Positions 2,570-8,287 of a stretch of DNA of 64,000 nt are shown in pieces (position 1 is the stretch's first letter; every line of letters starts with the position of its first letter). Under the pieces are notes generated by a model, which had not been told where the DNA came from, made no database searches, and was given only the letters and a program-made list of their open reading frames with translations. The stretch is from contig JAKPPT010000068.1 of assembly GCA_029547205.1 (NCBI GenBank), positions 41,922 to 105,921 of the forward strand. Reading direction: 5' to 3'. The stretch comes from Spirochaetota bacterium. Its GTDB lineage: Bacteria > Spirochaetota > Spirochaetia > Treponematales > UBA12059. A program made the position numbers and the translations under genes.

Positions 2570-3340
2570 CTATTTCATTTCTCCAATATCACTGATACAA
2601 CAGTCTTCCCATTTGGAACCTGGATACACGCTGACAATTTGAATTGCAACAAACCACTGCACAGTTAAGTCTTGAGCATTCATACCAGACACCTGTGTTT
2701 TTGGGACATTTGCTGGAGCTACAGGCAATGGAAGTTCCTGCCAGCCCATAGCATCCTTTAACTCAGTTTCTCTGACAGCATATGTTTTAACATTAATAAA
2801 AAAATCAAATGCCTCACCTAAATTTTTTCGTTCTGCTGCTAAAAGCCAGACTTTGATTTTTTTTGGTCTGGCATTTTTATTATAAAGATCCGCGTTTTTT
2901 TGGAAACCATTGCGTATGCCAATATTCTTTAATCCTGGTATTGGTGCTATGACAACTTCTCCTATACCTGTCCCTTTAACGCCTTCCACCCAGCATGTCT
3001 CTGGATTATTATCCCTGAGGCTTTGCGCAGAATACATGCTTGCCCAGTTTGCCAGCGCCCAGGCATATTCATACTCCGCTTGCATGTCAGCGTCTTCATC
3101 TCCAGTTGGTTCAGGCTTTACAGGAGGCTTTCCTTCCGCTTTCAAAAACGTTGATGACCACGCATCATTGTATTTACCGCCTCCATCGCAAAGCTCCGGT
3201 ATAACATAGCCAATTTTGATATTTCGCAAATCAGGATTTCCGTATGTTTTTGGCGGTTCAACTGTAGTAAATTGTCCATACAAAACAACTGCTATGCTGG
3301 TAAAAACTAATACCAATACAAGCAAACTTAATTTTTTCAT
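2570..3340 (-). CDS. Secreted hypothetical protein (signal peptide MKKLSLLVLVLVF...)
   Basis: 256-aa ORF starting at the internal Met, with a GAGGAGG RBS 5 nt upstream. The N-terminus is hydrophobic. No family recognised. Confidence 0.75.
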   Translation of the reverse strand: MKKLSLLVLVLVFTSIAVVLYGQFTTVEPPKTYGNPDLRNIKIGYVIPELCDGGGKYNDAWSSTFLKAEGKPPVKPEPTGDEDADMQAEYEYAWALANWASMYSAQSLRDNNPETCWVEGVKGTGIGEVVIAPIPGLKNIGIRNGFQKNADLYNKNARPKKIKVWLLAAERKNLGEAFDFFINVKTYAVRETELKDAMGWQELPLPVAPANVPKTQVSGMNAQDLTVQWFVAIQIVSVYPGSKWEDCCISDIGEMK

Positions 3341-3560
3341 ACACACCTCCTCATTCATTTTTAATAAAATTATCTTTTGCAATTACTAATTATAAAACCG
3401 CATTTTGCTATTGTCAAAGCTGGGTTTACACAACATCTGTTCTTAAGCACAAAAAAATAAACACGACAACTTGAAAATACTGAAGCGTGAATTATACTTA
3501 ATAATAAGCTTTACTATATACTTTTTATGCAGCATATTTTTTTTTAACAAGGAGGACACT

Positions 3561-4737
3561 TTGTCTAAAAAGTCATTATTTTTCTTTTTTTGTGCTGCTA
3601 TAAGCTTTTCAGTACATGCATAGAGTTTTAGTGGTTATGACGTACTGGTCATAACGGGTTCTGTTGATGGTGCCGGCACTGATGCAAATGTTTCAATCAA
3701 ACTGTATCGAATCGACAAATGGGCTCTTTGAAAACTCAAGCTGGGACACATTCCGACTGATGCCGCCTACTATAAATTCTTATGGGACATTACAAAAACT
3801 GCAAATTAAGCATGATAACAAAAACAATAGGCCAGGTTGGTTTCTCGGTGCGGTGGTTGTTTTTAACAGAAGTGCTGGAGAACAGGCTATGTTTTATGCA
3901 AACCGCTGGCTTGCCACTGGCGAAGGTGATAAAAAAATCGATAGTGCGCTCGATAAACTTCAAGCTGTTTACTATGCCTACAAGGCACCGTATGAACTAT
4001 CGTCTCCATGGCAGCATGAAACAGTTGGTGTTTCGAAAGGTAAAGCATGGGGCAATAAGTCAAGCGGAGCGCTTGGAATCTACTGTGATGTATGGGCAGG
4101 CAGCATTAAAGCTCTTGAACAATTGTGCACCATTTACGATGATATGAATCTGCTTGCCAATCTGGAAACCCTGGCAAATGCAAACATCGCAACCCGTATT
4201 GTTGATACATTTTCCTTTAACACCACAAACGGACGCAATACCGTACGAGTCGGACTGCGTTGTGATGCAAGCGGCATAGTAACCGGATCCGGCTTTGTCA
4301 TTGTTGGAGGAGCAGTAGCAGGCATCGACACAGTTGGTTTCTGCACACCGCCTTCCCAGCCTGTTCAGACACAAAACACTCAAGCAACCTATACAAAAAT
4401 TACAAAAACAGCAAATGATACCAGAGAGTATCCCATATACAACAGAAGCTGGGGCTGGCATCAAAGTCATACGTACGATCTTGGTTCACTACCAGCAATT
4501 CAATCACTTTCCGAAACTATAGTCGCAGGTCCATCGAAACAAAAAAATATAACCTATACAAGGCAGATTCGCATTTCAAACGATGGCACCAAATGGACAA
4601 CAATCTACACCTTCCATGTACCAGGCGGAACGTCGAGCAGTTTTTCGGTATCGGGAATTTCGGTTAATTGCCGCTATGTGCAAATTTTTACTAATGGTCA
4701 AGGATATGTTGATGACTCAACACTGACAGTAAATTAG
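3561..4737 (+). pseudogene. Disrupted gene for a secreted PLAT/LH2-domain protein: signal peptide, in-frame TAG, then a +1 frameshift inside the PLAT domain.
   Basis: GGAGG RBS plus TTG start at 3561 encode MSKKSLFFFFCAAISFSVHA, followed by a TAG stop at 3621. The same frame continues SFSGYDVLVITGSVDGAGTDANVSIKLYRIDKWAL (PLAT N-terminal consensus) to a stop at 3729. The PLAT domain then continues in frame +1 (LFENSSWDTF...LQIKHDNKNNRPGWFLGAVVV) as ORF 3664-4737. Confidence 0.55.
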
Positions 4738-4801
4738 CATGCAAAAAGAAACAGCATGATGATTTCATAGCAAGCTGCTATAAGTAAGAGGAGGAAACAC
4801 A

Positions 4802-5389
4802 ATGGATAATCAGACCTATCTCGATCCAGGGCTACCAGAAGGCCTTGAACTCAATAACACAGGAACAGGTATTGAAATTACCAGAAAATGGTTTTCTGTG
4901 CTGCATATTTTTACCGGGATTTTTGCACTAGTCTGGTGTGGGTTTCTTTTTTTCTGGTATAGCATTCTTGGTTCAATCGCTGCTCCGGGTGAAGAAACAT
5001 CCAATTTTCTTCTCATATTCTACTTATTTCCGCTCATCCACGTTGCTGTCGGAGTCTATTTACTCTACTACTCTCTCTGCGGTTTTTTCAACAAAACAAC
5101 GATCAGTGTCGATTGGGAAAACCTTCGCATTAAACATCATCCGCTTCCATGGCGGGGAAACAGAACCATTCCGCGCTCAGATATAAAACAGCTCTATGTC
5201 AAACGGCAGGAATCTCATTCAAGAAACGGAACAAGCGTTACGTATGACATAAATCTCATAACGCAGAGCGGCCGGGATATAAAACTACTTAAAGGACTTC
5301 CTGCTGATGAACAGGCTCGTTTCATCGAACGAGAAGTAGAAAAATATTTACACATCGAAAACGTACCAGTGCGGGGAGAATACTCATAA
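4802..5389 (+). CDS. Hypothetical membrane protein (two TM helices)
   Basis: 195-aa ORF with a strong RBS (AGAGGAGG) and two hydrophobic segments. Confidence 0.7.
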   Translation: MDNQTYLDPGLPEGLELNNTGTGIEITRKWFSVLHIFTGIFALVWCGFLFFWYSILGSIAAPGEETSNFLLIFYLFPLIHVAVGVYLLYYSLCGFFNKTTISVDWENLRIKHHPLPWRGNRTIPRSDIKQLYVKRQESHSRNGTSVTYDINLITQSGRDIKLLKGLPADEQARFIEREVEKYLHIENVPVRGEYS

Positions 5390-5522
5390 CGAGACAAACT
5401 ATATTGCGCGGCCTTGCAAATAACAATATTTTCTTATAGAGTAGATAACTACATATGGTGCTTCCTGCTGTTTCTTTAACTGCAGGTTTAGTATAATTCT
5501 CACTCTAAAAAAAGGATGTACT

Positions 5523-7091
5523 ATGAGAATCAAACTGCATCTTCCTAAAGACAGAATCGATTATGCCCGCCAGCTTGCTAAACAGATTGCTGCTCCTGTA
5601 GGGGCATTTATCGATGCTCACAGTTCAGTGACGGTTGAACGCGCTACGCTCCGACTGGCAGGAGCTGATGGTGCTAATGCCGATGGTGTACCCGTCCCCA
5701 ACCTCGTTGTGGATCAGGTTAAAGCTGCAGATCCAGCACTGCTCGAAGACGGTGTTATTATTCGATATATCAATGCACTCATTAAAACCGGTCTTTCTAC
5801 TCAGGAACTCAATAAAAAAATTGCAGAAGGTTTCAATGTTATGAGCCTTCCGTTAGGCGACCGCTCAGCAATTGAAGCAAAATGCAATGAACTAGTAGCA
5901 CAGGGTCTGGGGAAAATAAAAGACAACCGTGCATATCGAGACAAAAAGCTTGAAGAGTTTCATGACCGCAATAACAAACCACTTCTCTATCTTATCGTTG
6001 CTACTGGTAATATCTATGAAGATGTCAAACAGGCAAAGGCTGCAGCAAAACAGGGTGCTGATGTTATAGCTGTAATCCGCACAACCGCGCAAAGCTTGCT
6101 CGATTATGTTCCGTACGGAGCAACTACAGAAGGATTTGGCGGAACCTACGCAACGCAGGAAAACTTCCGAATCATGCGCGCTGCACTCGACGAGGTAACC
6201 GAGCAGGAAAAACGGTATATCATGCTCACCAACTATGCATCGGGTCTCTGTATGCCGGAAATTGCTGCAATGGGCGCTCTTGAACGGCTAGACATGATGC
6301 TCAATGACTCAATGTACGGCATCCTCTTCCGCGACATCAACATGTACCGTACTTTTGTTGACCAGAAGTTCAGCCGCATGATCAATGCATATGCTGGTAT
6401 CATTATTAATACCGGAGAGGACAACTACCTTACTACAAGCGATGCGTATGAAAAAGCATATACCGTACTGGCAAGCCAACTCTTGAATGAGCAGTTTGGA
6501 TTTATGGCAGGGCTTCCTGCGCGTCTTCTCGGATTAGGTCACGCTTTTGAAATGGATCCTTCCATTAAAAATGGATTCCTCTATGAGCTTGCCCAGGCTC
6601 AGATGGCGCGCGAAATTTTCCCAGAGCATCCGCTCAAGTACATGCCACCCACAAAGTTCATGTCAGGAGACATTTTCAAAGGCTTAGTCATGGACAGCAT
6701 GTTTAATTTTGTTTCTAAAGCTACGAATCAGGGTATTCATCTCCTTGGCATGCTCACCGAAGCTATTCACACACCATTTATGATGGACCGGTACATTGCC
6801 GTCGATAATGCAAAATACATTATGAACAATATTGAAGATTTTTATGACGATATAGAGTTTAGAAAAGATGGTATTATTGTACGCCGTGCGCATGAGGTGC
6901 TCGATAAGACAATAAAATTCCTTGAGGAAGTTCAGGCAATTGGTTTGTTTGATGCCATCGAACGCGGACTTTTTGCTGATGTAAAGCGTCCAAAGGATGG
7001 CGGAAAAGGATTTGAAGGGCTCATTAAGAAGGGGCCACAGTATTTTAATCCATTTGAAAAGCAGCTCAAACAAGAGCTCAACATAAAATAA
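5523..7091 (+). CDS. kamD: D-lysine/beta-lysine 5,6-aminomutase alpha subunit
   Basis: 522 aa. The N-terminal pattern ...SSVTVERATLRLAGADG...VPVPNLVVD matches the KamD family. A B12-binding partner is encoded immediately downstream. Confidence 0.85.
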   Translation: MRIKLHLPKDRIDYARQLAKQIAAPVGAFIDAHSSVTVERATLRLAGADGANADGVPVPNLVVDQVKAADPALLEDGVIIRYINALIKTGLSTQELNKKIAEGFNVMSLPLGDRSAIEAKCNELVAQGLGKIKDNRAYRDKKLEEFHDRNNKPLLYLIVATGNIYEDVKQAKAAAKQGADVIAVIRTTAQSLLDYVPYGATTEGFGGTYATQENFRIMRAALDEVTEQEKRYIMLTNYASGLCMPEIAAMGALERLDMMLNDSMYGILFRDINMYRTFVDQKFSRMINAYAGIIINTGEDNYLTTSDAYEKAYTVLASQLLNEQFGFMAGLPARLLGLGHAFEMDPSIKNGFLYELAQAQMAREIFPEHPLKYMPPTKFMSGDIFKGLVMDSMFNFVSKATNQGIHLLGMLTEAIHTPFMMDRYIAVDNAKYIMNNIEDFYDDIEFRKDGIIVRRAHEVLDKTIKFLEEVQAIGLFDAIERGLFADVKRPKDGGKGFEGLIKKGPQYFNPFEKQLKQELNIK

Positions 7092-7103
7092 GGGAGAAAC
7101 GAT

Positions 7104-7844
7104 ATGAAGCTCATAAGAACATATGGTGACACGCTTGATGACGGTAAAGTCCAGCTTTCGTTTACCCTCCCGGTGCCGGATGGAGCCCGCGGCAGAGAGG
7201 CTGCACGGAAACTTGTACTTGCATGGGGTTTCAAAGAATGCGAAGTAGTGCACTCTGCTCCGCTCTCAGAAGAATTTTCCTTTTATGTAGTGTATGGCAA
7301 ATCCGAAACCGCAATCGATTTTGATACAGTTGAAGCTGATGAAATCGATAAAGATGCCTCAATGAGCATGGATGAAGTCAATGAGTTTATCAGGCAGCAT
7401 ATAAAGCGCAAAGTTGTCGTTGTTGGTGCATGCACAGGCTTCGATGCACATACTGTAGGTATTGACGCCATTATGAACATGAAGGGTTATAACCACCACT
7501 ATGGACTCGAACGCTATCCCGAAATAGAAGCCTACAATCTTGGAGCACAGGTTCCCAATGAAAAGCTCATCGATTTTGCTGTAAAAGTTAAAGCTGATGC
7601 TATTCTCGTAAGCCAGGTAGTTACACAAAAAGATACACACATTCATAACATGACCGAATTTATAGAACTGCTTGAGGCAAAGAACCTGCGAGACAGGTTT
7701 ATCTGTATAGCCGGTGGTCCGCGCATCGGCAACAAGCTTGCTGTAGAGCTCGGATTTGATGCCGGTTTCGGTCGTGGCACATACGCTGATGATGTTGCCA
7801 CGTTTATTGTGAAAAAACTTGTAGAAAAAGCACAAGCTTCCTGA
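7104..7844 (+). CDS. kamE: D-lysine/beta-lysine 5,6-aminomutase beta subunit (B12/PLP-binding)
   Basis: YGDTLDDGKVQLSFTLP N-terminus; DxHxxG cobalamin motif (GFDAHTVGIDAIMNMKGY); 246 aa. Confidence 0.85.
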   Translation: MKLIRTYGDTLDDGKVQLSFTLPVPDGARGREAARKLVLAWGFKECEVVHSAPLSEEFSFYVVYGKSETAIDFDTVEADEIDKDASMSMDEVNEFIRQHIKRKVVVVGACTGFDAHTVGIDAIMNMKGYNHHYGLERYPEIEAYNLGAQVPNEKLIDFAVKVKADAILVSQVVTQKDTHIHNMTEFIELLEAKNLRDRFICIAGGPRIGNKLAVELGFDAGFGRGTYADDVATFIVKKLVEKAQAS

Positions 7845-8128: not shown

Positions 8129-8267
8129 TATTTAGCCATCACTTTCACTATAACTTCTCACAAGCTTTCATACATACTGATGAATCATTAATCACTGCAC
8201 AGCTCACACCATGTTCAAAGCGCTTTGGCCTTAACATGTTTTTCCGCTGGCGCTATGGTATCGAACT

Positions 8268-8287
8268 CAGTGTCATGAAGCTTGTTG
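8268..8287 (-). repeat. Reverse-orientation copy (CAACAAGCTTCATGACACTG); a weaker forward copy lies at 8159-8177
   Basis: Direct read. Confidence 0.75.

Follow-up and report, generated by a model that had tools for sequence, protein, structure and literature searches.

Evidence for a recently inactivated pseudogene of a secreted PLAT/LH2-domain protein in an uncultured Treponemataceae lineage

PLAT/LH2 domains are found at the C-terminus of Clostridium perfringens alpha-toxin and of pancreatic lipase, at the N-terminus of lipoxygenases, and in polycystin-1, and their usual role is the targeting of membranes, lipids or a partner protein. Literature searches returned nothing on bacterial or Treponema PLAT proteins, or on the JGI samples compared below. 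Separately, bacterial pseudogenes are well known to decay with a bias towards deletion, as in Mycobacterium leprae and host-restricted Salmonella, and a deletion with short direct repeats at its ends is the usual mark of replication slippage or microhomology-mediated deletion. We analysed a stretch of 64,000 nucleotides (the window) and found that positions 3561 to 4737 very probably represent a genuine, population-fixed and recently inactivated pseudogene of a secreted PLAT protein in an uncultured Treponemataceae lineage. As in the known PLAT proteins, the PLAT domain is here an accessory beta-sandwich joined to other modules of a secreted protein. Unlike in those proteins, there is no lipase, lipoxygenase, phospholipase C or other catalytic domain, and the partners are two binding-type beta-sandwiches; moreover, the PLAT domain of the window is split by a stop codon and is about 17 residues short. 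As in M. leprae and Salmonella pseudogenes, a nonsense mutation and two deletions, flanked by 8-nt and 5-nt direct repeats, have become fixed, further lesions are accumulating, and substitutions are apparently relaxed. Apart from this gene, the coding density of the window is high (53 long ORFs in 64 kb), which points to the isolated loss of an accessory gene and not to genome-wide decay.

The features of the locus are as follows, in window coordinates.

3471..3498, + strand: promoter-like site (TTGAAA, 16 nt, TATACT), 10 of 12 consensus matches
3549..3555, + strand: Shine-Dalgarno sequence AAGGAGG, 5 bases 5' of the TTG at 3561
3561..3620, + strand: TTG start and 20-codon signal peptide M/L-SKKSLFFFFCAAISFSVHA, predicted from the sequence pattern
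3621..3623, + strand: lesion 1, nonsense change CAG (Gln) to TAG (window GCA TAG AGT; orthologue GCC CAG ACT)
3624..3693, + strand: PLAT/LH2 domain, N-terminal portion, read in the start-codon frame, SFSGYDVLVITGSVDGAGTDANV..., PF01477 profile positions 1-25
3694..3704, + strand: lesion 2, junction of a 50-nt deletion causing a frameshift, microhomology ATCAAACT at 3696-3703
3694..3951, + strand: PLAT/LH2 domain, remainder, read in the +1 frame, QSNCIESTNGLFENSSWDTF...IKHDNKNNRPGWF...RWLATGEGDKKIDSAL, PF01477 profile positions 56-106 (frame-B ORF)
3955..4095, + strand: left remnant of the central jelly-roll module, profile positions 1-50 of about 227
4095..4101, + strand: lesion 3, junction of an in-frame 246-nt (82-codon) deletion, microhomology GCAGG at 4096-4100
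4096..4344, + strand: right remnant of the central jelly-roll module, profile positions 134-227
4345..4383, + strand: Pro/Gln/Thr-rich linker, 9 nt longer than in the orthologue (extra CCTTCCCAG at 4351)
4384..4734, + strand: C-terminal discoidin-like (F5/8 type C, NedA-like) domain, intact in the window haplotype, PF22633 20.4 bits
4612..4612, + strand: site of lesion 4 in a second haplotype, a T deleted in 8 of 12 related contigs and present in the window
4735..4737, + strand: original stop codon of the gene, TAG, identical in the orthologue

A scan of one genome per species gave a single related locus (L001), located on contig CAZVTR010000015.1 of an uncultured Treponemataceae MAG. At this locus the PLAT gene runs without interruption as a single ORF (5938-7401) for 487 to 492 aa (P0002/P0023), and its product is 81% identical to the conceptual product of the window. 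The two loci are syntenic, with the same flanking genes on both sides; the shared order is a hybrid-cluster protein (HCP) gene, a gene for an NADase-type discoidin protein on the minus strand, the PLAT gene, a gene for a 195-aa membrane protein, and kamD and kamE, the last two encoding lysine 5,6-aminomutase. The alignment to relatives that had been proposed in an earlier note on this DNA thus yielded an intact syntenic version, although in another species. P0003 (508 aa, 53% identical) is a more distant homologue, also intact, whose gene is found in another context, beside a GH3 gene and an ABC transporter, and an exhaustive search added one further full-length member (P0024; 499 aa).

The TTG start aligns with an ATG in L001 at the DNA level, and the equivalent N-termini of the orthologues are MVKKVCIVLLCTAIVFLVYA, followed by Q, and ...LMLCGSTAHS, also followed by Q. 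The AXA-like site (VHA/VYA/AHS) stands immediately ahead of the conserved QTF/GYDV, and therefore processing of the predicted signal peptide by signal peptidase I is favoured over lipoprotein processing at the conserved Cys (window position 11). The −10 region of the promoter-like site falls in a stretch of 18 nt (3486-3503) in which the window and L001 do not differ, and the site is probably still intact. Because this site and the Shine-Dalgarno sequence are intact and the −10 region is conserved, the remnant locus may still be transcribed. No Rfam RNA family was found within 3200-4900. The divergent neighbour on the minus strand (2570-3382) is intact and encodes an N-terminal hydrophobic segment followed by an NADase-type glycan-binding discoidin domain (NF047619, 92 bits; PF25302); a promoter-like site at 3417-3389 on that strand matches the consensus at 12 of 12 positions. 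This neighbour adjoins the PLAT gene in L001 as well and is absent beside P0003.

Comparison with L001 revealed three lesions in the window. The ribosome-binding site, the TTG start and the signal peptide ending in VHA described in the earlier note are all present, and codon 21 is indeed TAG. This codon corresponds to the first residue past the predicted cleavage site, a position at which P0003 also carries Q. Beyond it, the start frame reads SFSGYDVLVITGSVDGAGTDANVSIKLY and ends at TGA 3729. Through the second lesion the PLAT domain loses about 17 residues, which read SIKLYGTAGTSAFISLA in the orthologue, and the frame moves by +1. In L001 two copies of ATCAAACT lie 52 nt apart (TCTATCAAACTTTAT ... 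ACAATCAAACTGCAT), and the window holds one hybrid copy. The same window bases give VSIKLY when read from the start codon and QSNCI when read in the +1 frame, motifs that are 18 codons apart in the orthologue; this stretch can be read in two frames because the 50 nt between the repeats were deleted, and since 50 equals 2 modulo 3, the observed +1 shift follows. The frameshift had previously been attributed to an extra T near 3720, an explanation that the 50-nt deletion at about 3694-3704 replaces. The third lesion takes out profile positions 51-133 of the central module (approximately 40%), including several beta-strands and the first inserted helix, GPVVIDKVIGLAGIAA. Being in frame, it shows only by comparison with an orthologue, and the earlier count of two lesions had missed it. 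The segments of 50 nt and 246 nt are retained in P0002, P0003 and P0024, and both events were therefore deletions in the window lineage. The 9-nt length difference at 4351 was also considered as a lesion and rejected; the linker is variable in length and is longer still in P0003.

In order to read the lesions at the population level, we used the protein database entry for the frame-B ORF, P0001 (100% identical), which NCBI names 'PLAT/LH2 domain-containing protein [Spirochaetales bacterium]'. The 13 members of its 90% cluster measure 98 to 356 aa, none of full length. Twelve contigs encoding members of this cluster were compared, from NCBI TPA MAGs (GCA_035424545.1, GCA_035418525.1 and GCA_035451305.1), JGI metagenomes (3300010345, 3300010347, 3300009704, 3300009664 and 3300025686) and ENA assemblies of metaSPAdes and MEGAHIT contigs (ERZ773283, ERZ772709, ERZ27257445 and ERZ27257464). 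All 12 were 99.5 to 100% identical to window positions 3480-4760 and carried the TAG and both deletion junctions; they represent fewer than 12 truly independent samples, as the same raw reads may underlie more than one of them (L002 and L004 have an equal length of 2,550 nt). Four contigs have the window-type haplotype. The other eight form a second haplotype that differs by four SNPs and the 1-nt deletion at 4612, and one of these has a further SNP at 3764. The deletion at 4612 lies in a TT dinucleotide and frameshifts the C-terminal domain, as seen in the proteins as ...TTIYTSMYQAERRAVF.... Among the relatives in the protein database, no intact allele of this species was found, and the window and the 12 contigs together give 13 of 13 sequences broken at all three sites. 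A metagenome_contigs collection gave no match to the exact 26-mer 5' of the deletion or to P0001, and this collection evidently does not overlap the JGI contigs known to contain the sequence.

These data bear directly on whether the lesions are real. Some assemblies do contain many single-base errors and indels, and the gene might have been intact in the organism; but the same TAG and the same junctions recur in contigs from different assemblies and assemblers, and deletions of 50 and 246 nt are a type of error that no sequencing platform makes. Since several assemblers and samples agree, sequencing error is excluded, and an intact gene hidden by faulty sequence has a negligible probability. 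An identical intact ORF, which would have been the sign of such an error, is the opposite of what was seen: the near-identical copies are all broken, and the intact copies that were found all come from other species. The same sample speaks to phase variation, which the earlier note had offered as an alternative. Secreted and surface proteins of host-associated spirochaetes are often variable, and a contingency gene could be switched off here and later revert. However, none of the lesions lies in a homopolymer or other simple repeat; they comprise one base substitution and the deletion of two unique stretches, the deletions being irreversible, and no allele in the on state occurs among the 13 sequences. 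A revertible gene is thus extremely improbable, and the alternative was rejected.

Programmed recoding was likewise considered, in which the TAG would be read through (by a suppressor tRNA, by pyrrolysine insertion or as a reassigned codon) and a +1 ribosomal frameshift would follow, so that a full-length protein is made. The intact Shine-Dalgarno sequence and start codon are in keeping with this, as is the better PLAT match of the two frames combined than of either alone. On the other hand, within the window TAG terminates 11 of the 53 long ORFs, this gene among them, and it also ends the orthologue; the only tRNAs in the window are tRNA-Asp and tRNA-Pro; and the orthologues have CAG and a single frame, with neither the stop nor the frameshift. 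Even a perfect frameshift would leave the PLAT domain without about 17 residues and the central module without 82, and 8 of the 12 contigs carry a further frameshift. We consider the chance that recoding rescues the gene to be vanishingly small. The reading of a decaying accessory gene, which the earlier note had also proposed, is the right one: an intact syntenic orthologue exists, and three lesions are shared by all of the contigs.

The selection history of the remnant was examined against L001. Its dN/dS was 0.088 at a dS of about 1.08. The ratios of the intact accessory neighbours were 0.094 (NADase-type protein) and 0.071 (membrane protein), and those of the core enzymes were 0.040 (HCP), 0.009 (KamD) and 0.012 (KamE). 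Because the value of the remnant is in the range of the intact accessory neighbours, the inactivation was recent relative to the species split, and nearly all of the divergence from L001 would have arisen while the gene was functional. Taken alone, a dN/dS of 0.088 would describe a constrained gene and speaks against a pseudogene; it fits one only if inactivation was recent, with dS about 1. The intact promoter-like site and strong Shine-Dalgarno sequence, with the transcription that they might still allow, also speak against it. The SNPs between the two haplotypes behave differently. In the remnant, three are non-synonymous and one is synonymous (n = 4), in addition to the new frameshift, versus 14 synonymous and one non-synonymous (n = 15) in the HCP gene, the NADase-type gene and kamD together (Fisher p = 0.016; small numbers, with only four SNPs in the remnant). 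This pattern, within the limits of these small numbers, fits neutral drift since the separation of the haplotypes.

Whether the +1 frame might itself encode a shortened protein with a retained or new function can be judged from the same values. Frame B is open from 3664 to 4737 (1,074 nt; 351 to 357 aa), reading ...QSNCIESTNGLFENSSWDTF...IKHDNKNNRPGWF..., and its length, its low dN/dS against the orthologue and its naming as a protein by annotation pipelines are what one would expect of a real gene. Nevertheless, its product would have no signal peptide and would be missing the first half of the PLAT domain and about 40% of the central module; inspection by eye showed no Shine-Dalgarno-like sequence before the candidate starts at 3664-3688; and in the population the C-terminal domain is frameshifted in 8 of 12 contigs and three of the four haplotype SNPs change amino acids. 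The dN/dS of frame B is low because the inactivation is recent. A functional frame-B protein is accordingly rated as very unlikely, though not quite so remote as the alternatives of error, phase variation and recoding. The pseudogene reading is instead carried by the syntenic intact orthologue, the direction of the lesions as given by the outgroups P0003 and P0024, their reproducibility across assemblies, and the signs of relaxed selection, small in number.

Two further differences were seen in the neighbourhood. In the gene for the 195-aa membrane protein (4802-5389), downstream of the pseudogene, the haplotypes differ at 34 positions (5.8%) between 4909 and 5332, and five more differences fall in the spacer past this gene (5490-5506); the flanking genes differ by only 0.35 to 0.42%. 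These differences suggest an imported recombination tract or a patch of local diversification. No family could be assigned to the membrane protein. At 8191-8286 on the + strand there is a remnant of approximately 96 nt, ITAQLTPCSKRFGLNMFFRWRYGIELSVMKLV (tblastn, 59% identity over 32 aa, E = 2e-5), whose counterpart in L001 (10937-12160) is an intact, repeat-rich and apparently secreted protein of 407 aa encoded between tRNA-Pro and an MFS transporter gene. This is apparently a second accessory gene lost in the window lineage, within 4 kb of the PLAT pseudogene.

The domain content was examined with the fused translation of both frames. Against Pfam PF01477 it scored 46 bits (E = 1e-11; cut-off 23) over profile positions 1-106 of 117, compared with 20.1 bits for the frame-A piece and 24.4 bits for the frame-B ORF taken separately. 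The intact homologues P0002 and P0024 scored 59 and 43.7 bits, respectively. The match spans the frame change and is not due to chance, and so the PLAT/LH2 domain that had been read as continuing in the +1 frame is borne out, with the hit sought in the conceptual translation lying above the Pfam gathering score. The domain of the window is nonetheless neither complete nor uninterrupted: a TAG precedes it, it is spread over two frames, and it is without the 50 nt present in both intact orthologues. The fused protein matched no NCBIfam family. An AF2 model of full-length P0002 was poor (pLDDT 43); over residues 1-286, where the alignment was shallow, pLDDT was below 50, so that the strands predicted there come from an unreliable model, and the C-terminal domain was the sole part modelled with confidence.

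The region downstream of PLAT had been described as one unfamiliar domain of about 290 aa. Two modules are present instead, the remnant of a jelly roll of about 215 aa that no Pfam model covers and a discoidin-like C-terminal domain of about 120 aa. When the parts of P0002 and P0003 outside PLAT were used as a profile in an exhaustive search, 144 representative proteins (E <= 1e-3) were recovered among 1.8 billion, and the central and C-terminal modules proved to be independently mobile. The central module follows PLAT in P0024, P0025, P0026 and P0030, and it is also N-terminal in large extracellular proteins with PKD, CARDB, beta-propeller and T9SS sorting domains. In P0035, P0037, P0047, P0052 and P0067, proteins of 1,152 to 4,814 aa, the module of about 215 aa occupies the extreme N-terminus. 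No Pfam model was found over the central module in ten proteins carrying it, and a 40-member profile found nothing below E = 0.35 among PDB sequences.

An AF2 model of the central module built from a 40-sequence alignment is a beta-sandwich (pLDDT 86, pTM 0.81), in which a three-helix insertion of about 45 residues (residues 113-157) is the least confident part. The nearly invariant residues of the module are mostly glycines. By this model, its fold is a beta-jelly-roll of the CBM35/CBM6 type. The beta-jelly-roll CBMs (CBM35, CBM6, CBM36 and CBM22) and Cry toxin domain III share one fold; a Foldseek search of the PDB with the module gave only generic jelly-roll matches in weak agreement (TM about 0.3). 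Unlike the four CBM families, the central module belongs to no described CBM family, with an identity of 7 to 16% to them and no Pfam or PDB sequence match, and its three-helix insertion, of which the first helix is the hydrophobic one lost in the window, is absent from them. The intact relatives thus define, as modelled, an unannotated extracellular jelly roll of about 215 aa with a hydrophobic and amphipathic three-helix insertion.

For the C-terminal region, the HMM search suggested in the earlier note gave F5/8 type C and NedA-like families as the best Pfam matches. The last 120 or so residues match best to the galactose-binding domains of these families (PF00754 and PF22633). Unlike certified members, the domains of the window and P0002 remain below the PF22633 cut-off of 27.8 (20.4 and 25.7 bits, respectively), which marks a divergent relative; other relatives of the module reach the cut-offs (P0027, 28.6 bits; P0029, 31.9 and 28.2 bits; P0046, 30.1 bits). 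No catalytic domain was found in the intact protein. Based on these domain matches and models, it is possible, and we suggest tentatively, that the intact protein would be a secreted or surface binding protein combining a lipid- or membrane-binding PLAT domain with two glycan-binding-type beta-sandwiches. That PLAT and the central module form a new kind of membrane-active secreted protein (lipid-targeting and possibly pore-forming), and not a passive glycan binder, is considerably less likely, and we regard it as improbable.

From these results, the course of inactivation may be reconstructed. The ancestor would have been a secreted protein of about 490 aa, consisting of a signal peptide, PLAT/LH2, a CBM-like jelly roll of about 215 aa that bears a helical insertion and, past a linker, a discoidin-like domain. 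The change of CAG to TAG directly past the signal peptide would leave only a 20-residue peptide from the real start. A 50-nt deletion between the ATCAAACT repeats removed part of the PLAT sandwich and shifted the frame, and a 246-nt deletion between the GCAGG repeats removed about 40% of the central module; both presumably arose by replication slippage or microhomology-mediated deletion. The protein product would thereby be lost, and the remnant would now be drifting, one haplotype having acquired an extra 1-nt frameshift and SNPs that are mostly amino-acid-changing.

The window gene is the pseudogene of a rare secreted PLAT protein, and its loss is ordinary biology: that an accessory gene disappears through a premature stop codon and deletions between repeats belongs to textbook bacterial genome dynamics and has little general weight. 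It has two practical consequences. A repeat-flanked deletion can mimic a single-base frameshift when only one sequence is at hand. In addition, five public MAG entries (HQG40074.1, HPD81014.1, HRS65205.1, HQK35204.1 and HON88932.1; 337 to 351 aa) name the out-of-frame remnant as an intact 'PLAT/LH2 domain-containing protein', and in MAG annotations this remnant (window 3664-4737) should be flagged as a pseudogene. For the family, the intact relatives expose an extracellular jelly-roll module that is so far undescribed and is a candidate for a new domain family.
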